This document shows positions 6,451 to 53,526 of a DNA stretch of 64,000 bases, in pieces. The translations under genes and the position numbers were made by a program. Under the pieces are notes generated by a model. That model saw nothing but the letters and a program-made list of their open reading frames with translations, was not told the origin of the DNA and did not search any database. Within the stretch, counting starts at the first letter, position 1. Each line of letters begins with the position of its first letter. The DNA comes from Okamejei kenojei. Lineage: Eukaryota. The stretch spans positions 48,112,001 to 48,176,000 of the forward strand of contig CM069141.1 in the NCBI GenBank assembly GCA_035221665.1, written 5' to 3'.

Positions 6451-6644
6451 GGCAGCAGCTCCGGACGGTTTCTGTTCGATTCATTTCGAACCGGATACAA
6501 CATCAGAACGATTAAATGAAAACATTGGAACAATTCGCAAAGGAGGTACAAACATTGTCTGCGTCGTATTTGTCTCATTTAAATCAAATCGCTGGCGAAA
6601 GGTGTTGGCTCGGGTTGAAACCATTGGAATGATTTCTACTGGAA

Positions 6645-9092
6645 ATGAGAGATAATATATATTGGCTGCTCAAATACCGACTATTTTGCTGCTTTTTCTG
6701 CCCCTGGGACCTTGTTTCTGGGCAGATTCGATATTCGATTCCCGAGGAATTGCAACTGGGTGCCTTTGTTGGAAATATCGCAATTGATTTGGGGTTAGAT
6801 TTAAAGCAACTCTCGGCTCGCAGTTTGCGGGTGGCGCCAGGCCTGAGGAAGCGAAATGTTGACTTAAATTTAGCAAAAGGGGTTTTATTTGTGAATGAGA
6901 GAATCGACAGAGAGCAGCTTTGCGGGCCGAGCATCGATTGCATTTTACCCCTGAACGTCGTGCTTGAAAATCCCCTCAGTCTTCACCAGGTGGAAGTGGA
7001 GATACTCGATGTAAATGACAATGCACCCAGTTTCCCCAAAAGTCAGATACGTCTTGAAATCTCAGAGAATATGGCACCGGGAGCGCGGTTCCCCCTCGAG
7101 GCCGCTCAAGATCCGGACATTGGGACGAACTCCTTGCAGACTTATCAGCTCCTTCCCAATGAGTATTTCATTCTTGATGTACAAGAACGTGCTAGGATAG
7201 GGGATTTACCGGTGTTAGTGCTGCAGCGGGCCCTGGATAGAGAAACGGCATCGACCCATGAATTAACAGTGCTTGCTGAAGACGGTGGAGTCCCTCTAAG
7301 ATCGGGTATGGTTCAGGTAACTGTCAGAGTGAAGGACGCGAACGACAATCCCCCTGTTTTCTCACAAGCGGTGTACAGTGTCAGTATGGTGGAATCGGCT
7401 CCCACAGGAAGTCTGATTATTAAGTTAAACGCCACTGATTTGGACGATGGCCCTAATGGTAAGATAACATATTCCTTCAGCGGCCATAACACTGCTGACG
7501 TTCGTGAATTAGTTGCCGTGAATTCTCAATCTGGTGAAATCAGACTGAAAGGGCATTTGGACTTTGAACAAAGCAAAACCTTTGTGATTAATATGGAAGC
7601 AAGCGATCATGGTTCTCCTTCAATGTCTCAACACTGTGATGTGTTGGTGGATGTTGTCGATGTGAATGACAATGCCCCTGAAGTGTCATTGACATCCATG
7701 TCCAGTGCAGTGGCTGAAAATGTTCCAATCGGAACCATTGTAGCCCTTCTCAGCGCAGAAGATAAGGATTCTGGACAGAACGGACAAGTAAAATGTCAAA
7801 TTCCGAATAAAGCCGCATTTAAGCTGGAAACATCAGTGAGGAATAATTGGAAACTGCTTGTACAACATGGGCTGGATCGTGAAACTATCCCCAGGTATGA
7901 CATCGTTGTGACATGCATGGATGCAGGGGAACCACCACTCACAACCAAGAAAAATATCCGTGTCGATGTTTCTGATGTAAATGATAACGCACCGAGATTT
8001 ACGCAAGCTGCATACACGGCAAATGTCATGGAAAATAACGTTATTGGTGATTCCATATTCGCCCTCACGGCCGACGATCCAGACACGGGACAAAACTCCC
8101 GATTAAACTTTACTATCCTGAATTCAGTCGTGGCCTCATATGTCTCAATTGACTCACAAAATGGTGTCATTTTTGCTCAGAAATCATTTGACTACGAACA
8201 ATTGAAAAACTTCCAGATCCATGTATTGGTGCGAGATTCTGGAGTCCCACCGCTCTCCAGTAACGTTACTGTGGACGTTGTTATCCTCGATCAGAACGAT
8301 AACGCTCCAGTGATCGTGAATCCTTTGCCCGAACTTGGATCAAATGTAATGGAGACAATATCCAGGTTTGCAGAACCAGGATACCTACTTGCCAAGGTAT
8401 CCGCAACTGACCACGACTCCGGTCAGAATGCCCGTCTGACTTATCATGTTTTTCAGGCCACCCACCGTAATCTTTTTACTATTTCAGAGGATACTGGGGA
8501 AATTTGGACCATCCGTGGCATTGAGACAAAGGATGCACCTGAACAAAGGCTGGTGATTGTTGTAAAAGATAATGGAATCCCGTCACTTTCAGCCACAGTG
8601 ACCATTGTTTTATCTGTGAAAGGAGGCGAAACGATATCCAGTGCCACCAATCTTTCTAAAGATCACGTCTTCGCTCCAGATTTGAACCTTTCCTTGGTCA
8701 TAGCTTTAGGAACGACGTCTACAATTTTCCTCGTGATTTTAATTATCCTGGCTGTCAAGGTTTATAAAAACAGAAATGGCGTGGAACGTCAATATGGTTC
8801 ACTGAACGTCTGCTGCTGTTTGGAGTCAATGAGTTCTCTGAATGGGATTCAAAATGCCAGCAGAAGTCTTCAAATACCACCGAACTACGTTGAGGTATTC
8901 GGAGGTGATCCGCTTTCGCAGAGTTACCGTTATGAGTCTTGTTCAACGTTGCAGTTTGCGAAGAGAGATTTAAGGACCACTCAAACGTCCGGGCTATCTA
9001 CAGCAATGGATTATAACCAGAAAAAAACGATTGGCAAAGAGAGCCCAGGAATGATAAGTTCTGAAAACTCAATCTGCCGTGCGACTAACGAT
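6645..9092 (+). CDS. Clustered protocadherin variable exon V2 (intact, 816 codons to donor)
   Basis: Signal peptide, QIRYSIPEE, EC1 C-x5-C, six EC repeats, TM, PPNYVEVFGGDPLSQ; donor GAT|GTGAGT at 9092/9093. Confidence 0.96.
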
Positions 9093-11357: not shown

Positions 11358-11403
<46 letters not shown>

Positions 11404-11890: not shown

Positions 11891-12085
11891 AGGCAGCAGC
11901 TCCGGACGGTTTCTGTTCGATTCATTTCGAACTGGATACAACATCCGAACGATTAAATGAAAACATTGAAACAATTCGCAAAGGAGGTAGAGACATTGTC
12001 TGCGTCGTATTTGTCTCATTTAAATCAAATCGCTGTCGAAAGGTATTGTCCAGGATTGAAGCCACTCGAATGATTTCTACTGGAA

Positions 12086-14535
12086 ATGAGAGATAATATA
12101 TATTGGCTGCTCAAATACCGACTATTCTGCTGCTTTTTCTGCTCCTGGGACCTTGTTTCTGGGCAGATTCGATATTCGGTACCAGAGGAATTGCAACTGG
12201 GTGCCTTTGTTGGGAATATCGCAATTGATTTGGGGTTAGATTTAAAGGAGCTCTCGGCTCGCAGAACACGAGTGGCGCCCAGCCCGAGGAAGCGGTATGT
12301 TGACGTAAATTTGCAGAATGGGGTTTTATTTGTGAATGAAAGAATCGACAGGGAGTTGTTTTGCGGGCCGAGCATAGAATGCATTTTACCCTTGAACGTA
12401 GTGCTTGAAAATCCCCTCGGTCTTCACCAGGTGGAAGTGGAGATACTCGATGTAAATGACAACGCTCCCAGTTTCCCCAAAAACCAGATCCGGCTTGAAA
12501 TCTCAGAGAATATGGCACCGGGAGCGCGATTCCCCCTCGAGGCCGCTCACGATCCGGACATTGGGACGAACTCCTTGCAGGCTTACCAACTCCTTCCTAA
12601 TGAGTATTTTACTCTTGATGTACAGGAACGTGTTAGGGTAGGAATTACACCGGTGTTAGTGCTGCAGAGGGCCCTGGACAGAGAAACGACATCGACCCAT
12701 GACATAACGGTGCTTGCTGAAGACGGCGGTGTCCCGATAAGATCGGGTACGGTACAGGTAACCATCAGAGTAAAGGACGCGAACGACAATCCCCCAGTCT
12801 TCTCGCAAGCGGTTTATAGTGTCAGTATGGTGGAATCGGCTCGCATAGGAAATCTGATTATTAAGGTAAACGCCACCGACTTGGACGATGGCCCTAATGG
12901 AGAGATAACATATTCCCTCACCAACCATAACTCTGCTGACGTTCGTGAATTAGTTGGCGTGAATTCGAAAACTGGTGAAATCAGGCTGAAAGGACATTTG
13001 GACTTTGAACAAAGCAAAACCTTTGTGATTAATATAGAAGCAAGCGATCATGGTTCTCCTTCAATGTCTCAACACTGTGATGTGTTGGTAGATGTTATCG
13101 ATGTGAATGACAATGCCCCTGAATTGTCATTAACATCTATGTCCAGTGCCGTTGCAGAAAATGCCCCAATCGGAACAATTGTCGCCCTTCTCAGCGTAGA
13201 AGATAAAGATTCTGGACAAAGCGGGCAAGTACAATGTCAAATTCCAAGTAAACTACCCTTTCAGCTGGAATCATCCGTGAAGAATAATTGGAAACTCCTT
13301 ATACAACACGGACTGGATCGAGAAACGAACTCGGGGTATGACATCACTGTGACATGCGCGGATGCAGGGGACCCACCACTCACTTCTCAGAAAGTTATCC
13401 GTGTAGATGTTTCTGATGTAAATGATAACGCACCGAAGTTTACGCAGGCTGCATACACGGCAAATGTCATGGAGAATAACGTTATTGGGGATTCCATATT
13501 CGCCCTCACTGCCTATGATCTAGACACGGGACTGAACGCCCGACTAAACTTTACAATCCTGAATTCAGTCGTGGCCTCATATGTCTCAATTGACTCACAA
13601 AATGGTGTCATTTTTGCTCAGAAATCATTTGACTACGAACAATTGAAAAAGTTTCCAGATCCATGTATTGGTGCGGGATTCTGGAGTCGCACCGCTCTCC
13701 AGTAACGTTACAGTGGACGTTGTTATCCTCGATCAGAATGATAATGCTCCAGTGATCGTGAATCCTTTGCCCGAACATGGGTCAACTGTAATTGAGACAA
13801 TATCCAGGTTTGCAGAGCCAGGATACCTAGTTGCCAAGGTATCCGCTGCTGACGCCGACTCCGGTCAGAATGCCCGTCTGACTTATCATGTTTTTCAGGC
13901 CACACACCATCATCTTTTTACTATTTCAGAGGACACAGGGGAAATTTGGACCATCCGTGGTATTGAGACAAAGGATGCATCGAATCAAAGGCTGGTGATT
14001 GTTGTAAACGATAATGGAATCCCATCGCTTTCAGCCACAGTGACCATTGTACTATTTATGGAAGGAAGCGACACGATATCCAGTGCCACCAGTCTTTCAA
14101 AAGATCACGTGTTCTCTCCAGATATGAACCTTTCCTTGGTCATAGCGTTAGGGACAACATCTATAATTTTCCTCTTGATTTTAATTATCCTTGCCATTAT
14201 GGTTTATAAAAATAGAAATGGTGTAGTACGCCATTACAGTTCTCTGAACGTCTGCTGCTGTTTAGAATCAAGGAGTTCTCTGAATGGGATACAAACGGCC
14301 AGCAAAAGCCTTCACTTACCACCAAACTACGTTGAGGTATTCGGAGGTGATCCGCTTTCTCAGAGTTACCGTTACGATTCTTGTTCAACGTTGCAGTCTG
14401 CGACGAGAGATTTAAGGACCCCTCAGACCTGTGGCCTATCTACAACAATGGGATATGTCCAGAAAACCCCTATTGGAAAGGAGAACCCAGGAATGATAAG
14501 TTCTGAAAACTCCAACTTTCGTGTGAAATAACGAG
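12086..14535 (+). CDS. Clustered protocadherin variable exon V3, two apparent +1 frameshifts (pseudogene or assembly error)
   Basis: ORFs 12086-13705 and 13668-14531 together give a full paralog. Extra base at ~13652 (AAAAAGTTTCCAG vs AAAAACTTCCAG in V2) and at ~14527 (GTGAAATAACGAG vs GTGAATAATGAG in V1). Donor GAG|GTGAGT at 14535/14536. Confidence 0.85.
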
Positions 14536-16640: not shown

Positions 16641-16649
<9 letters not shown>

Positions 16650-19120: not shown

Positions 19121-19318
19121 GAACAGCTCGCAGAATTTCTGCGAAAATCCACTGGTAACTATGAACAAAATTAAAAGATGAACATGAAATGATCCGTGCG
19201 ATTTATGGTACGGCTGAAGTGTGGAACATCACGGTTTAAATGCATAAGAAATCCAAATAAAGAGACCATTAATGTTGGCATCACGAACTGAAAGACAGTG
19301 GAATGATTTACACTGGAA

Positions 19319-21772
19319 ATGAGGTACAAAGTATATTGGCTGCTAAAATGTCGATTGCTCTGCTACGTCTTCTCTTCATGGGGTATGGTTTCGGGGACGA
19401 TTCGCTATTCGATTCCTGAGGAGCTGCAACTGGGCGCCTTTGTTGGGAACCTCGCACTCGATTTGGGTTTAGATATAAATCAGCTATCGACACGAGGTTC
19501 CCGCATCGTGGCCGGTTCTAAAAAAATATATATGGACATCAATTTGGACAATGGAATTCTCTTTGTGAAGAAAAAAATCGACAGAGAACAGCTATGTGAG
19601 TCAAGTCTCTTTTGTTTATTATCCTTCGATGTTCTGTTGGAAAATCCGCTGAAATTGTACCCGATTTCAGTGGACATTCTCGATGTAAATGACAACGCTC
19701 CTATTTTCCCGGAAAACCAAATCAGCCTTGAAATTTTAGAGCTGGCTGCACTGGGAACCCGTTTCCTCCTCGAGTCTGCCGATGATGCCGATGTTGGAAC
19801 CAACTCCTTACAAACGTACAAGCTCCAGCCGAACGAATATTTCTTCCTCGATGTGCAGACGCGCAGTGGAAGTGAAATGTTACCAGTATTGGTGTTACAA
19901 AGGTCCTTGGACAGAGAAAAACAACCCGTCCACAAATTGGTCTTGGTAGCAGAAGATGGCGGTGTTCCTTTAAGATCGGGTACCGTTCAGGTTACTATAA
20001 CAGTGAATGATGCAAACGATAACGTGCCTATTTTTCCTCAGTCGGTATACAGGGTCAGCCAGCTAGAGTCTGCACCAAAAGGAACGCTTATTATCAAATT
20101 AAACGCCACTGACCTGGACGATGGCCCCAACGGGGAGATAATGTACTCCTTCAGCAGTCATAATTCAGCAAGAGTACGTAAACTTTTTGATGTTAATTCC
20201 AAAAATGGTGAAATTAGACTGAAAGGGAATTTGGATTACGAGGAAAGTAGCACAGTTCAGATGAACATACAAGCAATTGATATGGGTTTAAACGCAATGG
20301 CTGGGTATTGTGATGTGTTACTAGGCATTATTGATGTCAATGATAACGCACCTGACGTGACGCTCACGTCTCCGTCGAGTAAGGTTTTGGAAGATGCCCC
20401 TAATGGGACTGCAGTGGTATTGTTCAATGTAGAAGACAAGGACTCGGCCCAAAATGGACAAGTTCAATGCCAAATTTCAAACACTCTGCCCTTTCGACTA
20501 GAATCGACTCTGGGGAATTATTACGAGCTCTATATTGATCAGCCGTTGGATCGCGAGAATACCTCTAACTATGATGTGACTATAACATGCACGGATTCAG
20601 GGATCCCTCCTCTCTCATCCAAGGCAACGGTTCGTGTAGAGGTTACAGATGTAAATGACAACGCACCACGATTTTTGCACCCCTCGTATACAGCAAACGT
20701 CATGGAAAATAACGTTATTGGTGCTTCTATATTACGTTTGAATGCCATCGATCCAGACGCAGGACACAATGCCCGATTGAAATTTTATTTTCTGGAGTCC
20801 ACGCTTCAGGACACACAAGTGTCGTCTTATGTATCGATTAACTCAACGAGTGGAGTCATATTCGCCGAGAGATCATTTGACTACGAACAGTTGAAACACT
20901 TCCGCGTCCAGGTTCAGGTGCAGGATTGTGGAGTCCCACCGCTCACCAGTAACGTTGCAGTGGACGTTGTTATCCTCGATCAGAATGATAACGCCCCAGT
21001 CATCGTGAGTCCTTTGCCGGAATATGGGTCAACAGTCATGGAGACAATTCCCAGATTTGCCGAACCTGGATACCTTGTGGTCAAGTTATCAGCTATAGAT
21101 GCTGACAATGGTCAAAATGCCCTTCTCGTTTTCCAAATTTATCAGGCTACCCATCACGACCTTTTTACTATTTCGCCAGAGACTGGCGAAATTTGGACTA
21201 CCCGACGAATCATGAGCAGGGATGCTTCCAAGCAAAGACTGGTGATTGTGGTAAAAGATAGCGGCAGTCCTCCTCTTTCAGCTTCTGTGACGATAATGTT
21301 GACTGTAGCAGGCAGTCACAGTCAAACATTCTCCAGTATCAACAGTGTTACTAAAAATACCGGATTCACTTTGGATCTGAGCTTTTCCTTGGTCATAATC
21401 TTAGGAATAACATCCAGCGTGTTATTTGTTATTTTAGTAATACTCGGATTTATTGTTCATAGAAACAGACAAGGATTGGGAGGGCAGCGCTGTTCCCTGG
21501 GCGTTTGTTGTTGTTTTGGAGCAGGGGCATCTCTGAATGGAATTCAAAAGGCCAGTAGAAGCCTTCAGATCCCTCCTAATTATGTAGAGGTATTTGGGGG
21601 CGATCCACTTTCTCAACGATTTCGATACGAATCGTGCTCAACGTTGCAATCGACGAATGCCAAAGCGTGCGGGCAACCTGCAGACAATCATTATGTCCAG
21701 AGAGAGTTTTTCAGGAAAGGCAAGTCTGAAAAGGGGAAGTTGAACAATTGCAGCAGCACTGTAAACAACGAG
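19319..21772 (+). CDS. Clustered protocadherin variable exon V4 (intact, 818 codons to donor)
   Basis: Full signal/6EC/TM/cytoplasmic ORF; donor GAG|GTGAGA at 21772/21773. Confidence 0.96.
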
Positions 21773-28169: not shown

Positions 28170-28320
28170 GCTTTAAGAAATGCCCATGGCAGAGATTGGT
28201 CGAACTTGAGGGATTCCGTTTGCCAATCAGAAGCTGTGATGTGACTGGAGATCTGGACTGCCCCCTTTCCTCCTCATCCACCATCACAGACATTCATACA
28301 GTGTGAATCTGAATGGCGGA
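28170..28320 (+). promoter_or_regulatory. Conserved promoter module of V5
   Basis: GCTTTAAG 28170, ATTGG 28195, CCAATCAG 28223, GATC 28250 followed by GACTGCCCCC, CCACCAT 28278. Confidence 0.8.
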
Positions 28321-28516
28321 CTGCGAAATGTTTCCTTGGTTCATTCGGCTACCAGGGAGTTTCGGAAAAAGAAGGTTTGTCGGACTCGCACGGCCCATTC
28401 TCTTATGTCTTTCAGCACCTCTTCATCAAGAAAATTATATATCAAGAACTTAATTTTCAGGACTGAAAGAGCGGCGCCGCAATGCGCTGAAGCAATTGGA
28501 ATGCTTTGTGCCGGCT

Positions 28517-30976
28517 ATGGGATATTATCGAGTATTTTGGAGGTTAAACTGGCAACTGTTCTATTGTGTTGTTTTCGACTGGGTTGCGGCTTCTGGACAG
28601 ATTCGCTATTCGATCCCTGAAGAGCTCCAACTCGGCGCCTTTGTTGGAAATATTGCAGACGATCTGGGGCTACGTACAAAGGAGCTCACGGCTCGCAATT
28701 TTCAGATTGTGCCCGGTTCCCGGAAACAGTATTTGGAGGTAAATTTAGACAATGGAATTATGTTTGTTAAACAAAGAATCGACAGGGAACAGCTGTGTGG
28801 AACAAGCCTAACATGCACATTTTCTTTGGAGGCTGTAGTAGAAAATCCCCTGACCGTGTATCGCATTGAAGTGGAGATTCAGGACGTAAACGACAATGTT
28901 CCCACTTTCCCGAACAGCCAGATACGCCTTAAAATTTCAGAGAATGCAGCGCCGGGAATGCGCTTTCCCTTGGAGGGGGCACGGGACTCGGACGTTGGAA
29001 CAAATTCCTTGCAGACCTACCAGCTGACTGCCAACGAATATTTCGCATTAGACATTGACTCACGCGGTGGGGACCGCAAGTTTCCAGTGCTAGTGCTGGA
29101 TCGATCTTTGGATAGAGAAAAGCAAGCGGCATACAAGTTGGGACTGCTAGCCAAAGACGGAGGGGTCCCTGCTAAGACGGGCATTGCTGAGATAATAATT
29201 ACAGTGCAGGACGAAAACGACAATGCACCTGGCTTTCCAAACTCCGTTTACAGAGTTAGTATCCTAGAAAATGTGCCCAAAGGAACACTGGTTATCAAAT
29301 TAAACGCCACGGATTTAGATTATGGTTCCAATGGCGACATATTGTACTCGGTCAGCAGTCAATCGTCTGTTAGAGTCCGTGAATCGTTTTATGTGGATTC
29401 CAAAACGGGGGAAATCAGAGTCAAGGGAAATCTGGACTATGAGGAAGAAAGTATATTTGAGATTAATATACAGGCACTGGACCAGGGTATTAATCCAAGT
29501 GCGGGATACTGTCACGTCGTGGTTAACATTATAGATGTCAATGACAACGCCCCTGAGGTGAAGTTAACCTCTTTGTTCAGCCCAGTCCGCGAGGACTCAC
29601 CACCCGGGACCGTTGTGGCTTTGATCGGTGTATCGGACGCTGACTCTGGAGATAATGGGCAGGTAGATTGTGAAATCGCAGCGAGACTGCCTTTCACGTT
29701 GGATTCGTCCCTGAGAAATTATTACAGGTTACTTACACATCAGCAGCTGGACCGAGAAAATACCTCTCGATATGACATTCCTATTATGTGCAGTGATTCT
29801 GGCTCTACCCCCCTCGTCTCCAGGAAAACCATTACAGTGGAAGTTTCGGATATAAATGACAATCCGCCGCATTTTACGCAGTCTACCTACACGGCTTACG
29901 TGATGGAGAATAACGTTATTGGGGCACCAATCATCACAGTCATGGCTGTTGATGCAGATTTGAGTCAGAACTCCCAATTATTTTACTCTGTTCTGGAAAG
30001 CCAAGCACTGGGCGAGTCTGCGTCCACTTATGTCAGGGTCAATCCTCAAAACGGCGACATATTTGCTCAGAGAACTTTCGACTACGAGCAACTGAAAAAC
30101 TTCCAGATCCAAGTCCAGGCCGAGGATTCTGGGGAGCCGCCACACACTGCCACCACATTCGTGGATGTAGTTATCCTTGACCAGAATGATAACGCTCCGG
30201 TGATCGTGCATCCAGACACAGAATACGGTTCAACAGCGACGGAGACAATATCCCGCTCTGCAGACACAGGCTACCTGGTCACCAGGATTACAGCCACTGA
30301 TGCTGACTCGGGTCAGAATGCACGACTCTCCTACCAGATTCTCCAGTCGACTCACCTGGGACTTTTCACTATCTCCCCCGATACAGGAGAAATCTGGACA
30401 ATCCGCAGCTTCGCAAGAAAAGATGCAAACAAGCAAACGCTGATTGTTGTTGTGAACGATAATGGGACCCCAACACTCTCTGCCACTATGACCCTCGTCT
30501 TGTCGGTGGCAGAAGACAACACAGAAATTCTTTCTCGTGTCAACAACTTAACTGAAGATGCTGGCGATATAAGCTTTTACTTGGTTATAGCTTTAGGCAT
30601 CATCTCTTCCACTTTCTTACTTATTTTGATTGGCCTTGCTATCACAGTGTACAAAAACAGAAATGGATTTGGGGGAGATACGTGTTCCCTGGATACATGC
30701 TGTTGCTTTTCAACGAGATCCTCGCTGAATAACTTCCAAAAGGGAAGGAGAAATATTCAGATACCGCCGAATTATGTGGAAGTTTTTGGAGGCGATCCTC
30801 TTTCTCAACGGTACCGCTACGGAACCTGTTCCACTTCCACTTCCAGCAAAGGAGATTTTTTGTACTCCAACGGGTGCAGTTCGTCTACCGCCAGGAATGA
30901 TGGCAGGGGCGAAATTGTGTGCAATAATGAACAGTCACAGTCATCGCATTCTAACAATTATAGCAACATTGGTGAG
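28517..30976 (+). CDS. Clustered protocadherin variable exon V5 (intact, 820 codons to donor)
   Basis: ATG at 28517 aligns with paralog starts (the ORF track begins at an upstream TTG). Six EC repeats, TM, PPNYVEV; donor GAG|GTGAGG at 30976/30977. Confidence 0.96.
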
Positions 30977-34300: not shown

Positions 34301-34522
34301 CGTCTTGAGTTGCGGCAGTTTCCGCGGGTCCTTCTATTCCGGAATTTTACCACAAACTGGAAGGTCTGGTCAAACAATCGAGGCCATTTACTGAAAGGAA
34401 ACATATTCTTCTGCGAGAAAGCCTTTTCTTCTGAAGGTATACATATTATTTGTAATCACAGTGGGACAAAAACCGAAAGGCACCGTATCGCACGGAAGCC
34501 ATTGGAATGTTTAACACCGGCG

Positions 34523-36990
34523 ATGAGATGTTATAACCTATTTTGTTGCTTAAAATGGGAACTGTTGTATTACATGTTTATCGGCCTGGGAGATAATTTT
34601 CGCAGAGATTCATTACTCGATTCCTGAAGAATTACAAAGTGGCGCCGTTATTGGGAACATCGCGGACGATTTAGAGTTGGATGCTGAACAGCTCGCAGCT
34701 CGTAATTTTCGTTTGGTTTCAGGTCCAAAAAAGCGGTATTTGGAAGTAAATTTAAACAATGGGATTTTGTCTGTGAAGGAGAGGATTGACAGAGAAGAGC
34801 TGTGTGGCGCAAGCCTCACTTGCGTTCTGTCTTTGGAGGCCGTGCTTGAAAATCCTCTCAGTCTGTACCAAATCGAAGTGGACATTGTGGATATTAACGA
34901 CAACTCTCCCAGTTTTCCAAAAATCCAATTCCGCCTTGAAATCTCTGAGAATACTGCGCCGGGAGCGCGATTCATTCTCGACGCCGCTCACGATCTAGAT
35001 ATTGGAACTAACTCTGTTCAAACTTACCAACTCGTTACAAATGAGTACTTTGCATTAAATGTTGACTATGGAATCGCAGATTTGAAATTACCAGTTTTAG
35101 TGTTGGAAGAGCCTTTAGACAGGGAAAAGCATTCGACCCACAGATTACTGCTCTTAGCCAAAGATGGCGGAGTCCCAGAAAGGACAGGCTCCGCCCAAAT
35201 TAACGTCGTGGTAGAAGATGCCAACGATAATGCGCCGGTGTTCTCTCGGTCGGTTTACAAAGTCAATTTGTGGGAAAATGCGACAAAAGGGGCATTGGTA
35301 CTTCAAGTAAATGCCACTGATTTGGATGATGGCCCCAATGGAGAGATTGTGTACACTTTAAGTACCCATACCTCTGCCAGCGTCCGTGAGATTTTTAGCG
35401 TGGATTCTCGAACTGGTGAAGTAAAACTTAATGCCAATTTAGATTACGAAGAAAATAATGCTTTTGATATTATTATTCAAGCAAAGGATAAGGGATCTAA
35501 CGCCATCCTGGTGTACACTCATATTTTGCTGAATGTTTTAGATGTAAACGACAACGCGCCTGAGATAAGCTTGACTTCTTTGTCGAGCCCTGTTTCAGAG
35601 GATTCGTTACCTGGAACAGTGATAGCTCTCATAAGTGCGTCTGACAGAGATTCTGGCAAGAATGGGCAACTCCAGTGCCAAGTTGAAAACGAAGTGCCTT
35701 TCGCACTCGATTCATCGTCCAAGAAGCACTTAAAACTACTCACCCAGCAACCTCTAGATCGCGAATCCGCCTCCACACACAACGTAATAATCAGCTGTAG
35801 AGATGAAGGCAGTCCGCCTCTCGCCACGAACAAAAGCATCCGAATTGAGGTGTCGGACAGGAACGACAACGCACCCCAATTCTCGCAACCTTCCTTCACA
35901 GCCTACGTGACGGAGAATAGTAATATTGATGCCTCGATATTCTCAGTGATGGCTTTTGATCCAGACGAAGGTGAAAATGCTCGGCTGGCGTACAACATTC
36001 TGGACAGTTGGGTACAAGCTCAGTCGGTACATAATTATGTTTATATTAAAGCAGAGACTGGTGCAATATATTCCTACATATCATTTGACTATGAAAAGTT
36101 AAAACACTTTCAGATCCGTGTTCAGGCACATGACAATGGAGTCCCACAACTCTACCAGCAATGTCTCCGTAGATGTTATCATCCTTGACCAGAATGATAA
36201 CGCCCCGGTGATCGTTCATCCAATAATCGAGCATGGGCAACCTGCCACAGAGGCTGTATCCCGTTTTGCGGAAGCAGGCTATCCGGTGACCAAAGTTATG
36301 GCTACAGATGCTGACTCTGGTCCAAACGCTCGCCTCTGCTATCGGATCCTCCAAGCTACAGACATGGGACTATTTACTATTGCTGAGGAGACGGGGGAAA
36401 TATGGACAACCCGTGCTGTTACAACGACAGATGCTACCAAGCAAAGGCTGGTGGTCCAAGTCAACGACAACGGGATACCAGCTCTTTCAACTTCGATAAG
36501 TATAATCTTGTCATTCATAGATGACGAGGGATCACTAATGTCCGACAGGAACAGCATGTTGGAAAGGCCCAAATCTGATTCTGTTACCAGCTTCTACTTG
36601 GTCATTTCACTAGGAATAATTTCGACTATTTTTCTGGTAATTTTAATTATTCTAGCTGTTAAAGTTCACAATGGCAGAGATGCCTTTGAGTACCATGGCT
36701 GTCTTCTGGGCCCATGTGGTTGCTTCGGGTCAAGACATCCCCGCAACGGAATCCAGAAAGCCAGTCGCAACCTACGCATTCCTCCCAATTACGTTGAGGT
36801 ATTTGGGGGAGACCCGCTATCACAGAGTTACCGCTATGAAACTTGTTCCATGGCACGTTCAACAAAGGGAAACCTTTTGTTCCCCAACACCTGCAGTTCA
36901 TCAAATGGAAATGCCAAAACCATCGGTGAAGTTATTGCAAAGGGAGGAACCGTGTTGTTCAGTAATTGTGAGAATTATGTTCATTCTGAG
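34523..36990 (+). CDS. Clustered protocadherin variable exon V6, two apparent +1 frameshifts (pseudogene or assembly error)
   Basis: ATG 34523 (MRCYNLFCCLKWELL). Extra base at ~34578 (ATGTTTATCG) precedes AWEIIFAEIHYSIPEE; extra base at ~36153 (CTCTACCAGCAAT). Donor GAG|GTGAGA at 36990/36991. Confidence 0.85.
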
Positions 36991-38430: not shown

Positions 38431-38646
38431 CTTGCTTACGTTCGGTTCCTTACATTCATCTACTGGCGAAATTATAAGAAATAAGAAGGTTTGTCAGAAA
38501 TTGTTACGCAGAATTTTTTAACAGCGGCTGTATTTTTTTTTCTCGTGCAATTCAGTGAAAATGGAATAACTAATCACTCTTTTTAGCTGGAATTGTTCAA
38601 CGTCGCCGCGTTGTTCTCAAAACATTTGAAATGCTTTGTTCTGGAA

Positions 38647-41082
38647 ATGGAATTTTATAAACGATATTGGCTATTGAAATGGCAACTTTTTTACTGTATT
38701 TTCCCTTCCTGGCAAATTATTTCTGGACAGATACGTTATACGATTCCTGAAGAATCGAATGCCGGAGCTTTTGTTGGAAATATCGCAGAGGACCTGGGTT
38801 TGGATATAAAAGATCTCTCGGCTCGCGGCTTTCAAATTGTGCCTGGACCTAGCAAGGAGTATATAGACGTAAATTTAGATACTGGTGTTTTGTTTGTGAA
38901 GGAAAAGATGGACAGAGAACAGTTGTGTGAGCAGAATCGTGTTTGCGCATTCTATATGGAGGCAGTGATTGAAAATCCTCTGAATGTATACCATTTCCAA
39001 GTGGACATTTTGGATGTAAATGACAATGCGCCGAGATTTCCCGAGACCCAGTTCAATTTGGATATATCGGAGCTGGCTGCTCCGGGTACGCGCTTCGCCC
39101 TGGAGCGCGCAGACGACCCGGACGTTGGCACCAATTCGGTACAAAGCTACCGGCTGGTAGACAACGGCTATTTCTCCCTCGACGTGGAAACGTTGGGCGG
39201 CGACGGAAAGATACCGGTTTTAGTCTTGGAAAGACCGCTGGACAGAGAAAAGGACAGCACGCACAGGTTGGTGTTGATAGCGAAAGACGGAGGGATTCCT
39301 GAGCGATCTGGAACTGCCGAAATACTGATCCGTGTAGAGGATGCCAACGACAACGCGCCTGTTTTCTCCCAGCCCATCTATAGGGTCAGTTTGCCAGAGA
39401 ATGCACCATTAGGTATATTGGTGATAAAATTAGATGCCTCAGATTTGGATGTTGGTCTGAATGGGCAGATAGTATATTCGTTCGGCAGTCATACTTCGAA
39501 TCGAGTTCGGGAACTTTTTGTGCTGGATTCGAATAGTGGCGAAATCAGAGTTAAGACCACTTTGGATTACGAGAAAAATAGTGTTTTTGAGATTAATGTT
39601 CAAGCGAAAGATAAGGGTACTAACGCCACCCCCGTGTACTGCCACGTGGTCGTCAATATCGTTGATGTGAATGACAACGCTCCTGTGATAACGCTGACAT
39701 CTTTATTCAGTCCTGTCGGGGAAGACGCTCTACCGGGGACTGTTGTGGCTTTGATCAGTTCCACAGACAAGGATTCGGCTGAAAACGGGCACGTGGATTG
39801 CGAAATCCCAAATGACCTTCCCTTTAAACTGGATTCGTCCTTAAATAACTATTATAGACTAGTTACCCGGGAAACGCTGGATCGTGAACGTGTGTCATCT
39901 TACAATGTAACTGTGGTGTGTGGCGACGCCGGGAATCCTCCGCTAACATCGAACAAAACGGTCCTGGTGGAAGTCTCCGATATAAACGACCATCCGCCTC
40001 AATTCACACAGCCTGTGTATACAGCTTACGTGATGGAGAATAATGTAATCGGTGCGTCAATATTCACGGTGACAGCTTTGGATCAAGATCTAAATAGGAA
40101 CGCCCATCTGTCCTACTTTATTTTGGAGACTCAGATACAGGGCATGTCAATATCCACATACGTCTCCATTAACTCTCACAGTGGGGTCATATTTTCGCAG
40201 AGGAGTTTCGACTACGAACACCTCAAAGGATTTCAGGTCCAGGTTCAGGCGCGGGACTCTGGGATCCCATCACTTTCTGGCACCGCCTCAGTGGATGTGA
40301 TGATATTGGACCAGAATGACAATGCTCCGGTGATCGTGCATCCGTTACCCGAATTCGGTTCCACCGTGTTAGAGACGATATCCCGGCACGCAGAACCAGG
40401 CTACCTGGTCGCCAAAGTTTCGGCTACAGACGGTGACACTGGCCAAAATTCTCGCCTTTCCTACCAGATCTGTCAAGCTACAGATGCCGGTCTCTTCACC
40501 ATTTCACCGGACACAGGAGAAATCTGGACAATACGCAATATTAGGAAGAATGACGCCGCCAAGCAAAGGTTGGTCATCTGTGTTAATGATGACGGATCAC
40601 CGCCTCTTACAGCCACTGTGGCAATCGTCTTGTCTTTAGTTGGAAATGATAGACAAATGCTCTCAGATGTGAATAATTTGTCTGAGGGTGCCGGCTTTGC
40701 TTCTGGCACCAGCTTTTATCTTGTAATAACTTTAGGGATCACATCATCCGTTTTTCTATTGATATTGATTATCCTCGCCATTAAGGTCCATAGAAACTCT
40801 TACCTTGGCGCATGTGGTTGTTTTACAGCAAGAAACCCATTGCACAGAGCCAACAGAAGCCTTCAGATACCACCAAACTATGTTGAGGTATTTGGAGGTG
40901 ATCCTCTTTCGCAGGGTTTCCGCTATGATTCATGCTCAAGTTCACATTCTGTAAAGAGGGATGTCAGGTTGTCCAACGGTGGATCTACGCGTAAGAATTA
41001 CGCTCCTGGTGGCATTTTGGGAAATGGCGATACATTGCAAACCCTCAATTCAGCACAGTACAGGAACACTCTAAATAACGAG
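38647..41082 (+). CDS. Clustered protocadherin variable exon V7 (intact, 812 codons to donor)
   Basis: ATG 38647 (MEFYKRYWLLKWQL), six EC repeats, TM, PPNYVEV; donor GAG|GTGAGG at 41082/41083. Confidence 0.96.
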
Positions 41083-42195: not shown

Positions 42196-42345
42196 GCTTT
42201 AAGAAATGTCCTGGGTGGTGATTGGTTGAACGTCAGTTCACCAATCAGAAGCTGCAATGTATCTGGTGATCTTGACTGCCCCCTTCCCTCCCAGCCACCA
42301 TTACGTATGATCAGATACAATGTAAAACTCCGCATCGCGAGCTGC
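42196..42345 (+). promoter_or_regulatory. Conserved promoter module of V8
   Basis: GCTTTAAG 42196, ATTGG 42221, CCAATCAG 42241, GATC 42268 followed by GACTGCCCCC, CCACCAT 42295. Confidence 0.8.
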
Positions 42346-42552
42346 GTAGCGCTGGAACGGGTTCTGAATTCGAAAGCATTGGATATTTTAATTGAAATGA
42401 GAAGGTTCGAACACAATCTTAATAACCTTTGAAAAAAATACAGGTATTTTTGGGCAACATTGCCTCTTTTATCTTTAAAACTGGCATTCATTCCAGAGAA
42501 AAACGGTGAATGGCGTGTCGCGCTGAAGTAATTGCAATGCGTTGTAAAGGAG

Positions 42553-44997
42553 ATGGGATATTTTAAAATATGTTGGCCGTTGAAATGGTCACTTTTTTAC
42601 TATGTATTATCACCCTGGGTTCTGGTTTCGGGGCAGATTCGCTATTCAATGCCTGAAGAACTGCAAATGGGTGCCTTTGTTGGAAATATCGCCGACGATT
42701 TGGATTTAGACGTGAAAGAGCTGGCTGCCCGCAGTTTTCGGATTGTGTCTAGTCCCAGGAAGCAGTATCTGGATGTAAATTTGGACAATGGAATTCTTTA
42801 CGTGAAGGGGGAAATTGACAGGGAGCAGCTCTGCGGGTCGAACCCCGTGTGCACATTGTTCTTAGAGGCCGTGATTGAAAATCCGTTGACGGTGTATCAT
42901 TTTCAAGTCGAGATTCTGGATGTAAATGACAACGCCCCCCGTTTCCCCCATACCCAATTCCGCCTGGAAATCTCGGAGGTTGTGGCGCAAGGGGCGCGTT
43001 TTGCCCTCGAGTCGGCACAGGACCCAGATGTCGGAAGCAACTCCGTTCAGACGTACCAGTTGGGCGATAACGAGTATTTCATCATAGATATTCAGTCACG
43101 CCGTGGAGATGGCAAGTTGCCGGTATTAGTGTTACAAAGGCAACTGGACAGGGAGAAACAAACGAGTCACAAGTTAGTCCTGATTGCCAAGGACGGAGGC
43201 ATCCCACAAAAATCTGGGACGGCTCAGATAATTGTCATAGTGCAGGATGCGAACGACAATGCGCCGGTGTTCCAGCAATCGGAATACAGGACGAGGCTGC
43301 GGGAAAACACTCCCAGGGGAACCCTGGTAATCAAACTCAACGCTACTGATTTGGACGACGGTGCCAATGGAGAGATTGTGTACTCATTCAGCAGTTATGC
43401 CTCCAGCAGAGTCCGTGAAATGTTCAGCGTGGATTCTAGAACCGGGGAAATCAGGGTTAAGGGCAACTTGGACGCCGAGGAAAACCACGTTTTTGAGATC
43501 AACTTACAAGCTACGGATAGGGGATCTTATGCAACTCCTGTACACTGTGAAGTGTTGGTGGATGTTATTGACACCAATGACAACGCCCCCGAAGTGATAT
43601 TGACTTCTGTATTCAGTCCTGTCAGCGAGGACGCCTTGCCTGGCACAGTAGTCGCCCTCTTTAACGTGGATGACAAAGACTCGGGAGATAATGGACAGGT
43701 ACATTGCCAAATTTTAAGTGGTTCTACTTTCAAACTAGATTCCTCTTTGTCGAACTATTACAGATTACTGACCGAGCTGCGGCTGGATCGCGAAAATGTC
43801 TCAAAGTATGATGTTACAATTGTATGCACAGATAGAGGAGACCCACCACTCGCGTCCAAGAAATCGATCCGGGTGGAAATTTCCGACGTAAATGATAATG
43901 CCCCACGTTTTGCACACCCTTCATACACCGCCTACGTAACCGAGAACAACGCTATTGGGTCTTCTATCTTCTCAGTGACAGCTTTTGATCCCGATGTAAA
44001 CCAGAACTCTCAATTGACTTACTCGATCGTGGAAACATGGGATCAGGACTTGCCAGTATCCGCTTACGTGCTTATTAATTCGGAAACTGGCGTCGTATAT
44101 GCTCAGAAAACTTTTGACTACGAACAAATGAAAGGTTTCCAGCTCGATATACAAGCACAGGACTCTGGAACTCTACCGCTGAGCAGCAACGTTTCTGTGG
44201 ATGTCATTATCCTCGATCAAAATGACAATGCTCCAGTCATCACCCATCCACTGCCAGAGTACGGATCTACGGCTGTAGAGACTGTGTCGAGGTTCGCGGA
44301 ACCTGGTTACCTGGTCGCCAAGGTGTCCGCAACCGACGCAGACTCCGGCCAGAACGCTCGCCTCACTTATCAGATTTTAAAAGCTACAGACACTGGCCTT
44401 TTTACCATTTCGGCAGACACGGGGGATATATGGACAATCCGCGGCGTCCTGGACAAAGATCAGAGGAAGCAACGTTTGGTCGTTGCTGTAAAAGACAACG
44501 GAGAGCCGGCACTCTCAGCTATTTTAACGATCATGATCTCCCTGGAACAAAGTCAATCAGAACTGTTGTCCGAGGTAGACAGTTTATCGGATGAAGCAGT
44601 TTGGGCTCCGGTCACGAGCTTTTACTTGGTCATAGCCTTGGGATTAATTTCTGTCATCTTTCTAGCAATTTTGATTATCCTCGCTATTAAAGTTCACAAA
44701 AACAGACGTGGCTTTGATGATCGTAACTCCTGTTGTTTTGTGACAAGAGGTCGAAAGGCGAATAGGAGCCTTCAGATACCCCCAAACTACGTTGAAGTAT
44801 TTGGGGGTGACCCACTTTCTCAAAGTTACCGCTACGGTACCTGTTCAACTTCAAACTCTATCAAGCGAGACTCCATGTTCCGCCGCACTTGTAGCTCACC
44901 TACTGTCAGGAATAACGTCAATGCATACCCAGTCAGGAAGGAAGAGATACCACCAGTAACAAACCCTGCAATCTGTAGAGGCATTATCAATAGTGAG
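42553..44997 (+). CDS. Clustered protocadherin variable exon V8 (intact, 815 codons to donor)
   Basis: ATG 42553 (MGYFKICWPLKW), six EC repeats, TM, PPNYVEV; donor GAG|GTGAGA at 44997/44998. Confidence 0.96.
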
Positions 44998-45875: not shown

Positions 45876-45887
45876 AGTACGCAGATT

Positions 45888-46597: not shown

Positions 46598-46740
46598 GCT
46601 TTAAGCAGTGCATCGGACGGCCATTGGTTGAATGCGAGCAGGGACGCGTTCACCAATCAGAAGCCCCAATTTTGCTGGAGATCTCTCCCTATCCACCATC
46701 ACGTAAGATCAGCCACAGTGTAAAATGGCCAGCGAGCTGC
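46598..46740 (+). promoter_or_regulatory. Promoter module of V9 (lacks the ACTGCCCCC box)
   Basis: GCTTTAAG 46598, ATTGG 46623, CCAATCAG 46653, GATC 46680, CCACCAT 46693. Confidence 0.78.
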
Positions 46741-46947
46741 GGAAAGCTGTATCTGGTTCCGAGCATGCATTTTTGGATGATTTTAGAAATAGGAACATCT
46801 GCATTAGTTAATGTGTGGATTGTCAAACTGCACAGGTATTTTTTTTACAAATTATAGCTGTAAAATTATGTAGAAAGACGTTTATTAAGACGGTTTCACG
46901 AACGGAGCAGGGCTGCGCTGAGGCATTTGAAATGTTTTTCGCTGGAA

Positions 46948-49423
46948 ATGGGACATTGTAGAATATATTGGTTGGGAAAATGGCATCTGCTGTACTATCT
47001 GTTCTCCTTCTGGCCTCTGGTTTCGGGACAAATTCGTTATTCCATTCCCGAAGAACTGCAGCTTGGTTCCTTTGTTGGTAATATCGCAGAGGATTTGGGT
47101 TTAGATGCGAGAGAGCTATCGGCTAGAAAATTTCGCATCGTGCCCGGGATCGGCAAAACATATTTGGACGTGAATTTAGACAATGGGATTTTGTTTGTGA
47201 AGGAACGTATCGACAGGGAGCAGCTTTGTGGATCGAGCCTTACTTGCCTTTTACCCATGGAAGCCGTGGTGCAAAATCCTTTAAATGTCTATCGGGTCGA
47301 AGTGGAGGTTTTAGACATAAATGACAATGCTCCCCGTTTTCCAAAGAATCAGTTCCATCTTGAAATCTCTGAATTTGCGTCGCCGGGTGCCCGCTTCCCC
47401 CTCGAGTGCGCGCACGATTCAGACGTGGGAAGCAACTCCCTACAAAGCTATCGCCTGGTTGGAAATCCGTACTTCGCGCTCGACATTGAGACCCGCAGTG
47501 GGGATGAGAAGCTGCCGGTGTTAACGCTGGAGAGGGCATTGGACAGAGAGAAAGAACCAACTCACAAGTTACAACTAATTGCAAAAGACGGTGGGATCCC
47601 TCCAAAATCAACCACTGCTGAAATACTAATCGCAGTACAGGATGTGAACGACAACTCTCCGGTGTTCTCGCAGTCGGTGTATAGGGTCAGCCTACATGAA
47701 AACGTGCCCAAAGGAACACTAGTAATAAAGCTTAATGCCACTGACTTGGACGATGGTTCTAATGGGGAGGTAGAATATTCCTTTACCAGCCACACCTCCG
47801 CCTCGGTACGTGAACTGTTTGATCTACATTCCAAAACGGGGGAAATCACAGTGAAGGGAAATTTGGACAATGAGTTAGACCGTGCCTTCGAAATCAACGT
47901 CCAGGCAACAGATAAGGGCTCTGCCCCACTACCTGTGTACTGCCGTGTTCACGTGGATATTACAGACGAGAACGACAACTCTCCCGAGGTGACGGTAACT
48001 TCTTTATTCAGCCCAGTTAGCGAAGACTCACCTCCGGGGACCGTGATAGCGCTTGATTAGCACTACAGATAAAGACTCTGGGAAAAACGGAGAGATTGAT
48101 TGTCAAATTTCAAACGGCCTTCCCTTTAAGCTGGAATCGCCCTTAACAAACTATTACAAACTGTTAACCGTGGGCCAATTGGATCGCGAAAGTATCCCCA
48201 AGTACGATGTCACTGTACTTTGCACTGATTCAGGATCGCCCCCACTTACTTCCAAGAAGCTCATGCAGGTAGAGATCTCGGATGTAAATGACAACGCGCC
48301 TCGTTTCAGCCAATCTTCATATACAGCTTATGTGATGGAGAACAACGCCATAGGAGCCTCGATCATAACAGTGACTGCTTCAGATCGTGATATGAACCAG
48401 AATGGCAAACTATCTTATTCCATTCCCGGAGACCAGATCCACGGTGTGTCGGTAGCCAGCTACGTGTACATTAACTCAGAGAATGGAATGGTATTTTCGC
48501 AAATAAGTTTTGATTATGAGGAGCTCAAAAGCTTCCAGTTCCAGGTTCAAGCACGGGATAGCGGAGTCCCGTCACTCACGGGCAATGTTTCCGTGGAGGT
48601 TGTTATTCTTGACCAGAACGACAATGCCCCGGTTATTGTCCACCCATTGCCTGAACGTGGATCAACAGTCATGGAGACCATGTCTCGCTCTGCAGAACCA
48701 GGTTATTTGGTTACCAAAGTGTCGGCCATGGATGCTGACTCGGGTCAGAATGCTCGCCTCTCCTACCAGATCGGCCAAGCCACTGATCCGGGACTGTTCA
48801 CCATTTCACCTGACACGGGCGAGGTGTGGATTATCCGTGGATTGGTACAGAAAGATGCGACCAAGCAAAAGCTAATCATTGTGGTGAAAGACAACGGAAC
48901 ACCGTCGCTATCAGCTTCCATGACCATCAGTTTATCGGTGATGGATGGGGATGCCCAGCTACTGTCTGATGTCTCTGGTTTTCTCGACGATGCTGCTTTC
49001 AAGTCCGCGTTGAGTTTCTACTTGGTGATATTTCTGGGGGCAATTTCATCAATTTTTCTGCTGATTTTAATCGTCCTCGCCGTGAAGGTCCATAAAAACA
49101 GGAGTGGCTTTGGTGTTTACAGTTGTTACGGGGACGTCTGCTGCTGTTATAGACCAAGACGTTCTTTCAATGGGATTCAGAAAGCCAGCAGAAACATTCA
49201 GATACCTCCAAACTATGTGGAGGTGTTCGGAGGCGACCCGCTTTCTCAAAGTTTTCGCTATGGAACTAATTCGACTTTAGGTTGCACTAAGAGAGACTCA
49301 CGGTTTCCCGACACGTGTAGTTCATCCGCAATGGCATATAAAGGAGGGGGTGGGCCTAATGAGAAATACGATTACCTGCACTCGCAAGCTCCTGCAAATG
49401 ATAGAAACACTGTAAATGCTGAG
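46948..49423 (+). CDS. Clustered protocadherin variable exon V9, one apparent +1 frameshift (pseudogene or assembly error)
   Basis: ORFs 46927-48060 and 48053-49468 join at ~48051 (ATAGCGCTTGATTAGC vs GTGGCTTTGATCAGT in V7). Donor GAG|GTGAGG at 49423/49424. Confidence 0.87.
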
Positions 49424-50870: not shown

Positions 50871-51067
50871 AATATTGCGCCGGGATCGTGATTTTTTGGA
50901 AGATTTGACTGAAAAGGAAATATTTCAAAAATATATCAAAACTGCAGGTATTTTCTTATCAAGGAGCTGCTTATTTTGCATTTTAAAAGATGATAACCAC
51001 TTTATTCCAATGAATATCCGAGCAGCGCCGCGCCGTGCTGGAGCAACCGGAATGCTTTGTGCTTGAA

Positions 51068-53526
51068 ATGGGATTATATCAAACATATTGGTTATTAAAA
51101 TGGCAACTGTTGTCTTTAGTGCTCCCCTGGAATTTTGTTTCTGGACAGATGCGGTATTCGATTCCCGAGGAATTGCCGCTGGGAGCCTTCGTTGGGAATA
51201 TCGCTGCTGATTTGGGTTTAGACGTCGAACAGCTCCCGGCACGGAATTTTCGCATTGTGCCCAGTCCCAGAAAACAGTATTTCTCTCTGAAATTAGACAA
51301 AGGGGCTTTAGTGGTCAACCAGAAAATTGACAGAGAACAAGTCTGCGGTACGATGCCCGGTTGTGCCTTGACTTTCGAGACGGTGATCGATGACCCTCTG
51401 AACGTGTATCACATCGAGGTGGAGATTGTGGACATCAACGACAACGCTCCACTGTTCCCAAAGAATGAATTCCGCTTGGAAATATCGGAGTTGGCGGCGC
51501 CTGGTGTCCGCTTCCCATTAGAGTCCGCGTACGACCCGGACGTAGGCACCAACTCGCTCCAGACTTACCGATTGGCGAGGAATCAATATTTCGAACTGGA
51601 CATACAGTCTCGCAGTGGGGACAGCAAACTCCCGATTCTGGTAATGGAACGGGCTCCCGACAGGGAGCACCAGACTACTCTACAGTTGTTGCTGACGGCT
51701 ATTGACGGAGGCATTCCTGAACGATCTGGCACGGCGCAGATTATTATCCGCATTCTGGATGCCAACGACAACATGCCTACGTTTAGCCAGGCGGTTTACA
51801 GAGTCCGCTTGTTGGAAAATGTGCCCGTAGGAACGCCGGTGATCAAAGTCAACGCTACTGATCTGGACGAAGGCTCCAACGGAGAGATACGTTATTCCTT
51901 TGGTAGCCACGCTTCTGCCCAAGCGCGGGAACTTTTCAGCGTGGACCCTAAAACAGGAGAAATCCGAGTGAAGGGACCTCTGGATTTCGAAGCAGGAGCA
52001 GAGGTGGAGATTAGCGTACAAGCTGAAGATCAGGGTTCTTTTTCTGTGCCTGTGCATTGCGATGTGCTTGTTGAAGTTGTGGATGTGAATGACAACGCGC
52101 CGGAGGTAACAGTTACCTCTCTGTCCAGTTCAGTGGCAGAAGATGCCCCGCCCGGGACAGTGGTGGCCTTAATCAGTGTGACCGATGCAGATATGGGAGA
52201 GAACGGCGAAACACGCTGCCAGATTCCAAACAACCTGCCTTTCAAATTAGATTCGTCGTTCAGGAACTACTATCGACTGCTCACCAAAGATGTGCTCGAC
52301 CGAGAAGCGGTTTCTCAATATGGTATCACCGTTACGTGTAGCGATGCAGGCTTACCGGTTCTAACCACTAACAAAACCATCCAGCTAAAGATCTCCGATG
52401 TAAATGACAACCCTCCGCGTTTCTCGCAGACGGTTTACACCGCCTATGTGACAGAAAATAACATCATCGGTAGTTCTGTCTATTCGGTGCCAGCATCTGA
52501 TGCAGATGTGAATCTGAATTCCAAACTCTCTTACTCTATTCTTAAGACCCAGGCCGGCGGTACCCCTGTGTTCGGTTACGTCTCTATAAACTCAGACAGC
52601 GGCGTGATATCTGCTGAGCGTTCTTTTGACTACGAGGATTTGAAGAAGTTTCAGATCGAGATCCAAGCAACAGACGCCGGCGAGCTACCTCTGAGTACCA
52701 ATGTCTCAATTAACGTGGTCATCTTGGATCAGAATGACAACGCTCCGGCCATCGTATCCCCGAGACCAGAGTACGGTTCGACAGCAGTCGAGACGTTATC
52801 CAGATCAGCAGAGCCGGGTTATCTGGTGGTCAAGATATCCGCCGTGGACGCTGATTCGGGGCAAAATGCCAGACTTACTTATCACCTGGGGCAGGTGACC
52901 GACCGCGGTCTTTTTACCATCGCGCCTGATACGGGAGAGATCTGGACAATCCGTCGTGTAGTGAATGCAGATGCAACTAAACAAAGCTTGATGGTAGTGG
53001 TAAAGGATAATGGAGTCCCACCACTTAAGGCCACAATGAATATCATCTTAACACTTGAGGGGAGCGACACAGAAACGCTCTCTGAATTGAGTGGCCTCAG
53101 TGAAGATCTCGGGTTCCCTTCAGACATAAGCCTTTACTTGGTTATAGCTTTGGGGACAATCTCGTCTATTTTCCTGGTGATTTTAGTTATCCTAGCCGTT
53201 AAGGTCCACCGAAGCAGGAACGTATTTAACCGCCGCAGATACGACCTGGACACATGTTGTTGCCTGGGTTCCACACATTCTCTTAATGGAATACAAAAAG
53301 CCAGTGTAAACCTTCAGATCCCCCCGAATTATGTTGAAGTGTTTGGCCGTGATCCACTCTCCCAGAATTGTTGTTACGAGGTATGTTCCTCATCGGATAA
53401 CAAATAAAGGGGGCGACATATTTCCCAAGATACAAAGTTCAACTGCAAGGGCAAGCGCGCCCCCAGTGGCAAAAGTTAACTCAAACTTCAAATGATGTAA
53501 ATGGTAGAACTACTGTATCCAAGGAG
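51068..53526 (+). CDS. Clustered protocadherin variable exon V10 (last before the constant region); frame disrupted in the distal cytoplasmic tail
   Basis: ATG 51068; ORF intact through ECs, TM and PPNYVEV, then TAA at 53405-53407. The paralog-type donor GAG|GTGAGG at 53526/53527 lies in another frame (RTTVSKE), implying a net +2 shift near GATAACAAATAAAG (~53396-53409). Confidence 0.88.

Follow-up and report, generated by a model that had tools for sequence, protein, structure and literature searches.

In the skate Okamejei kenojei, a second start codon stands 16 nt before the main one, and out-of-frame with it, in all nine variable exons of clustered protocadherin (Pcdh) genes that lie in the window, by which we mean the whole 64,000-nt stretch of contig CM069141.1 analysed here (assembly GCA_035221665.1, positions 48,112,001 to 48,176,000, forward strand). 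The same feature recurs in the 11 genes directly upstream. Our best reading of this conserved upstream ATG (uATG) from the sequence data, to which we assign a probability of about 0.6, is that it opens an overlapping upstream open reading frame (uORF) acting as a translational damper. In this model, the upstream AUG, located 16–17 nt before the start codon in 20 adjacent Pcdh-nu-like variable exons, would take part of the scanning ribosomes, and this capture would set protocadherin output to a constant, reduced level. By the known scanning rules, it is predicted to be a start codon of medium strength, with a purine at −3 in 18 of the 20 genes and a G at +4 only in locus L009. Some ribosomes would initiate there and be lost to the main frame, while the others would scan past it or be won by the main AUG in the competition between the two nearby codons. 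For such a mechanism, the start codon alone should matter, not the uORF peptide. Termination would occur early, far upstream of the variable-to-constant exon junction, which is predicted to expose the mRNA to nonsense-mediated decay (NMD), and the element would have been inherited from the ancestral gene of the clade and kept through the subsequent duplications.

The upstream ATG in the nine genes of the window

The nine open reading frames (ORFs) of the window were recognized as clustered-protocadherin variable exons and are designated V2 to V10 (Table 1). Direct reading of the sequence confirmed an ATG/ATG pair with 13 bases between the two codons in all nine genes, the upstream codon being at −16 and out-of-frame, at exactly the nine coordinate pairs that had been listed in an earlier note on this DNA. 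The uORF lengths stated there agree with those in Table 1, and so does the presence of a purine at position −3 of the uATG in eight of the nine genes, V3 being the exception; position +4 is never occupied by G. As had also been noted, the bases of the uATG read TGA in the main frame of the first three genes and TGC or TGT in that of the other six.

The main ORF is broken in four of the nine genes in this assembly (those starting at 12086, 34523, 46948 and 51068), in the case of V3 after 539 amino acids, and main ORFs end early in 8 of the 20 genes of the clade in this genome. Contigs of other organisms lack the breaks of V6 at about 34583 and 36154 (two of two covering runs) and that of V9 at about 48053/48054 (four of four runs). 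Because of this absence, the three checkable breaks (34583, 36154 and 48053) appear to be either assembly errors or very recent lesions, and pseudogene calls in this genome are unreliable. One-base frameshifts split many variable exons in this assembly, with further sites near 13670 and 53400. The ORF breaks leave the conservation argument for the uATG intact.

Identity of the locus and extent of the feature

Searching the skate genome for EC1 domains yielded 80 matches, 77 of which are located on one contig across about 1.7 Mb. The window forms the 3′ end of this protocadherin run, and we retrieved the 68 matches elsewhere on the contig and the three off it for comparison. With N-terminal queries, the closest named proteins were those of skates (93–99%), followed by those of rays and sharks. 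An N-terminal query showed 63–66% identity with the nu proteins of Callorhinchus milii, with a similar type of signal peptide and a similar EC1; the Callorhinchus match clusters with protocadherin nu12 (ABV59359.1), and nu15 (B0YN99) was matched as well. The first constant exon is 52% identical to nu12 over 29 amino acids and 73% to a skate relative. The EC1 tree excludes ten loci that are broken or off-register, including L004; in it, nu12 falls into a group of 21 rows with 18 of the 19 included genes, at modest support (82/92) and with the group drawn open; L010 is placed outside. Judged by these comparisons, the window genes resemble the chondrichthyan Pcdh-nu subcluster, and as in the C. 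milii nu subcluster, variable exons in tandem are spliced to a common set of constant exons. The available part of PMC2764143 describes this subcluster as specific to cartilaginous fish, with no ortholog in bony vertebrates.

The feature is present in 20 of 20 adjacent paralogs, comprising the nine genes of the window and the 11 loci L001–L011; it is at −16 in 19 of them and at −17, likewise out-of-frame, in L009. Outside this set, the cluster contains 57 further loci, and a main ATG was called automatically in 52 of these (doubtful in L042, L017 and L018). Only one of the 52 carries an out-of-frame ATG at −16 or −17, and 11 have an out-of-frame ATG anywhere in the last 30 nt before the start. 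In the next five loci upstream of the clade (L012–L016), the feature is missing wherever a start was called. The uATG is a mark of one clade and not of the whole cluster, and the cluster-wide damper proposed earlier has to be narrowed to 20 adjacent genes of the 77 EC1 matches. Two loci of another group, L017 and L018, share an out-of-frame ATG at −25 before an unusually short signal of 17 amino acids, which is either another conserved uATG or the result of a wrongly called start. Away from the cluster, locus L069 (G000:C1:39430067) on another contig codes for a Pcdh with a clustered-type EC1 in an open frame of 867 amino acids.

Constraint on the upstream ATG

Because the fixed position alone is explained by paralogy, we measured conservation instead. 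The competing explanation is neutral inheritance, in which the ancestral gene had a −16 ATG by chance that was preserved by slow evolution or gene conversion. It draws on the facts that all 20 genes are paralogs, so that a fixed position needs no selection, that the tested triplet was chosen after the fact, and that, according to the tree, seven to ten of them arose by recent duplication. The three columns of the ATG require one, one and zero parsimony changes in the alignment of the 20 paralogs, and both changes fall on the branch of L009, where the −16 ATG was replaced by that at −17 in a single event. For comparison, a column of the leader has 4.84 changes on average, a third codon position has 5.32, and the −30 to −1 block averages 3.5 per column. 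Only one other triplet among the 221 leader triplets examined is equally constant, namely at −229, near the inferred start site. Simulated neutral evolution retained the triplet in at least 19 of 20 tips in 0 of 30000 trials at the leader rate and, when the rate of the closest flanks was used, with a frequency of 0.0008; gamma-distributed rate variation raised this to about 0.01 at most, in a variant that is only roughly calibrated. Among 12 deep lineages, the ATG is present in 12 of 12, while the mean pairwise identity of the rest of the block is down to 57%; the runner-up triplet between −40 and −3 is common to 8 of the 12. Gene conversion would have homogenised the flanks as well, and little conversion is reported for elephant shark Pcdh genes in the available part of PMC2764143.

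An internal control is provided by an ATG at −10 in the epsilon-like clade, which is found in only 6 of 29 homologous places (L063, L062, L061, L055, L054 and L039); such lability is what is to be expected of a uATG free of selection. In the leaders, the remaining ATGs are mildly depleted, with 53 observed compared to 85 ± 7 in shuffled sequences of the 20 genes and 37 compared to 51.5 in the 12 deep lineages (z −2.8, rank 4 of 64 triplets). Farther upstream, the depletion is much weaker (98 vs. 100 and 55 vs. 62, respectively). Taken together, these comparisons make neutral inheritance very unlikely and argue for constraint on the uATG beyond chance or shared descent.

The constraint may, however, act on something else than a start codon. 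The ATG could be the central part of an element, in DNA or RNA, within the −29 to −1 block, either a transcription factor site downstream of the start site or a site for an RNA-binding protein, that is kept for binding. This would agree with the lower number of changes per column in the block than in the remaining leader, with its nearly gap-free alignment and recognisability in sharks and sawfish, and with the fixed spacing, which suits a bound factor. However, the candidate motifs fit worse than the bare ATG, which is found in 20 of 20 paralogs: GGAATG occurs in 11 of 20 (5 of the 12 deep lineages), ATTGG in 10 and AATG in 16, whereas ATGG is found at −16 in none. We take GGAATG to be TEAD-like, ATGG to be YY1-like and further strings to be NF-Y-like, and all three motif readings were rejected for their poorer fit. 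Moreover, inspection by eye of 12 predicted structures revealed no common fold or hairpin, and L009 retains its ATG in a shifted register. We therefore regard a bound element as an unlikely explanation, and the start codon of an overlapping uORF as the preferred one.

Properties of the uORF

The length of the uORF varies from 4 to 56 codons across the 20 paralogs, and neither length nor peptide is conserved; only the first Met and often a Gly-Asn around the main start recur. The uORF overlaps the main ATG in 19 of the 20 genes (in L009, its stop codon overlaps the ATG itself) and ends 1 nt before it in V10. Because the peptide is not conserved and the uORF stop is lost in 5 of 20 genes, it is the start codon that is kept.

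A different function of the block would be a cryptic N-terminal extension in the main frame, initiated at a near-cognate CTG or TTG near −30 (reading L-E-C-F-V-L-E-M), or a frameshift from the uORF into the main frame. The main-frame translation of the block is indeed alike in skate, sawfish and sharks, and many paralogs contain an in-frame CTG or TTG at −30. Against this stand an in-frame TGA at −15 in 12 of the 20 paralogs and a TAA at −24 in V8. In addition, 59 of 191 retrieved database proteins fit a loose nu-type pattern (three of them being teleost false positives) and begin at the conserved Met, which supports this residue as the probable main start. We consider an extension or frameshift extremely unlikely, and the previous argument that the main-frame TGA of V2–V4 excludes a conserved N-terminal extension as the cause holds. 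Selenocysteine as a reason for the alternation of Cys and TGA at −15 was rejected, as no conserved in-frame start is present upstream. In the recent subgroup of the clade, a 38-codon uORF in the main frame (e.g., from 6516 and 11957) starts at −129 and ends on the TGA overlapping the −16 ATG; such an overlap of start and stop occurs in only 3 of the 20 genes.

Apart from a damper, the earlier note had considered a switch, i.e., control of the ATF4 type, in which short upstream uORFs and delayed reinitiation allow ribosomes to bypass the overlapping uORF under stress. The overlapping out-of-frame uORF is present, and most leaders carry further uATGs, one of which recurs near −125 to −146 in the recent subgroup. 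However, these other uATGs vary in number, place and length, 5 of 56 overlap the main start, none of the upstream uORFs keeps its place or length throughout the clade, and in V6 they are absent between −235 and −20. The bypass window would be only 16 nt, which is too short for much gain by delayed reinitiation, as deduced from the available part of PMC5972666. A regulated switch is unsupported and, in our view, very unlikely, while a damper remains the best reading of the earlier proposal on Pcdh dosage, since the ATG is constrained and probably part of the mRNA (see below).

The suggestion that V10 represents a reinitiation variant is likewise doubtful: its uORF stops 1 nt before the main ATG, while canonical reinitiation requires a spacer of some length, according to the available part of PMC5972666. 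A route of the DENR-MCT-1 type is a candidate for V10, but its early stop may more simply be another inhibitory form.

Probable presence of the uATG in the mRNA

None of the sequencing runs is on record as RNA, and we infer from their contigs that X1, X2, X5, X6 and X7 represent RNA. These runs are RNA-like in two respects: their contigs end where the donors of the variable exons lie (30980, 36994, 45001 and 49427), mostly with 21–22 unmatched letters, and thus appear spliced, and they have almost no coverage in intergenic bins free of repeats; X19 and X22, by contrast, continue. In each of organisms A, B and C, one single contig extends from roughly −225 across the uATG as far as the donor and carries 21 unmatched letters there (X1 at V8, X6 at V9 and X5 at V5). 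The 5′ ends of the contigs are at −243, −233 and −225 for V8, at −232, −224 and −170 for V5, at −222 and −385 for V9 (the latter being that of organism A, which starts at 46563) and at −241 for V6. For V7 and V10, shorter pieces start at −83; a contig of V10 reaches 736 nt upstream. A DNA-like run at V8 continues upstream of the starts of the RNA-like contigs.

Most of these 5′ ends lie 6–32 nt past a CCATC motif that is shared by the paralogs and closes a promoter-like block, which also comprises an invariant CTTTA, inverted and direct CCAAT motifs about 20–30 nt apart, and GATC. Any factor names for these motifs would be our assumption, and binding is putative. A CGCT box at constant position was not found in the promoters of the nine window genes.

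These contigs indicate that the uATG likely lies within an mRNA leader of about 220–240 nt. A start site downstream of the uATG as the only one, which would have removed the codon from the transcript, is unlikely in view of the contigs of three organisms running through it, although contigs do not give the shares of individual start sites. Among the differences listed for the contigs of organism A, none affects the uATG of V5, V8 or V9. An obligatory leader intron was rejected, as the contigs pass through the leader unspliced.

Two side observations concern the same leaders. A donor-like AG/GTA occurs at about −88 to −122 in 14 of the 20 paralogs and 8 of the 12 deep lineages (e.g., at 42440, 46835, 50947 and 6545); the contigs are unspliced across it, and its candidate roles are a U1 site close to the promoter or a minor donor for splicing to the constant exons. 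The V6 contig of organism A has 21 unmatched letters before its 5′ end (−241, position 34282), where no AG acceptor is present; an adapter, an upstream exon or divergence are candidate explanations.

Table 1. Features of the window (positions counted from its first letter)
Feature	Position	Strand	Remarks
V2 uORF	6629..6655	+	8 codons + TAA; over main ATG 6645
V3 uORF	12070..12096	+	8 codons + TAA; −3 is C; main ATG 12086
V4 uORF	19303..19419	+	38 codons; main ATG 19319
V5 uORF	28501..28620	+	39 codons; main ATG 28517
V6 uORF	34507..34536	+	9 codons; main ATG 34523
V7 uORF	38631..38660	+	9 codons; main ATG 38647
V8 uORF	42537..42566	+	9 codons; main ATG 42553
V9 uORF	46932..46961	+	9 codons; main ATG 46948
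V10 uORF	51052..51066	+	4 codons + TGA; ends 1 nt short of main ATG 51068
V5 5′ leader (inferred)	28285..28516	+	contigs begin at 28285 (B), 28293 (C) and 28347 (A)
V8 5′ leader (inferred)	42310..42552	+	RNA-like contigs begin at 42328 (A), 42310 (B) and 42320 (C); weak hint of start site
V9 5′ leader (inferred)	46726..46947	+	organism C contig 46726–49427 + 21 unmatched letters
V8 promoter-like block	42197..42300	+	CTTTAAG, inverted + direct CCAAT, GATC, CCATC; common to paralogs at about −370 to −235
First constant exon	61553..61611	+	59 nt, VKQPNADW..., AG acceptor + GT donor; matches C. milii nu12 constant region

A possible uATG in distant relatives

Sharks and rays separated roughly 250–300 million years ago. 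Seven gene models of distant relatives reach at least six residues into the leader, and five of these (one of catshark, two of sawshark and two of sawfish) read E, K or Q followed by C at codons −6/−5, which is the same reading as in the skate genes with A/TG at this place. Two further models were too short and two were not of the nu type. At the protein level, and hence indirectly, five of the seven shark and sawfish models fit a shared −16 ATG. A metagenome scan for ortholog DNA returned only one teleost-like Pcdh contig, which lacks the −16 ATG and is not a nu gene.

Discussion

The uATG represents a real, selected element of a known kind in a new place, and has apparently gone unreported. 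The closest parallel is found in eukaryotic overlapping uORFs and proximal out-of-frame uAUGs as assayed in a yeast library: according to the available part of PMC9743702, out-of-frame uATGs between −30 and −3 lowered reporter output and triggered NMD. As in those cases, an AUG is close before the main AUG, the uORF runs over the start and its peptide is not conserved; repression by competition and leaky scanning is predicted here, with NMD as a possible addition. What sets the skate uAUG apart from overlapping uORFs in general is its retention at a single distance in 20 tandem paralogs that each have a promoter of their own. The resemblance to the uORF1/uORF2 control of ATF4 (available part of PMC5972666) is confined to the inhibitory uORF that overlaps the main start out-of-frame; the skate genes differ by the lack of a conserved 3-codon uORF1, by the very short spacing, by uORF lengths of 4–56 codons and by the absence of any sign of stress control.

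Several points weigh against a damper. In the same yeast library (PMC9743702, available part), the inhibition fades as the uAUG nears the main AUG. A plain damper has no need for exactly 16 nt, yet the spacing is nearly fixed. The 30-nt block around the ATG is itself somewhat conserved (−27 A in 19 of 20, −11 T in 19 of 20 and −3 G in 20 of 20), and a larger motif in it could be the target of selection. The leaders contain 56 other, non-conserved uATGs in the 20 genes (0–8 each, mean 2.8), which blur the effect of one more. As to transcription, X1 and X2 were classed as "probably DNA", and contigs cannot give the share of transcripts that start upstream of the uATG. Among the distant relatives, two of the seven gene models, both fused, misfit the −6/−5 pattern, and protein models cannot tell GAA from GAG and show only stop-free frames.

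The near-fixed spacing would find a place in a more far-reaching version of the model, which we put forward as speculative and rather improbable: the paired AUGs may constitute a module in which selection acts on the 16-nt spacing as such, with both codons reachable by one scanning ribosome, such that start-codon stringency (the balance of eIF1 and eIF5) and NMD would together serve as one post-transcriptional dial that sets the dose of all isoforms in the array, kept since the shark-ray split. If true, such a dial would be a control layer not described for clustered protocadherins.

Control of clustered protocadherins has been studied almost wholly as promoter choice. The available parts of PMC7811963 and PMC2926608 describe control at the promoter via CTCF and the conserved sequence element (CSE) and via the neuron-restrictive silencer element (NRSE). 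The skate uATG resembles the CSE, CGCT box and CTCF site of these promoters (PMC7811963, available part) in being a motif at a similar distance before the start codon in many paralogs. Unlike the CSE, which is a promoter DNA element, it lies about 220 nt inside the inferred transcript. The words "uORF" and "untranslated" are absent from the available part of PMC7811963, and a search of the open-licence literature, judged by titles and abstract beginnings, yielded no account of upstream AUGs in the leaders of protocadherin genes.

The mechanism proposed here is an ordinary one, and the subcluster is restricted to cartilaginous fish, which limits the reach of the finding. Nevertheless, the retention of an out-of-frame start codon in all 20 members of the array suggests that they have in common a step, at translation or in NMD, by which receptor dose is set, and gives grounds for checking mammalian and teleost Pcdh leaders for a similar uATG. 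The protocadherins of this array are neuronal cell-recognition proteins, and the uATG is likely a built-in brake on the amount in which they are made.

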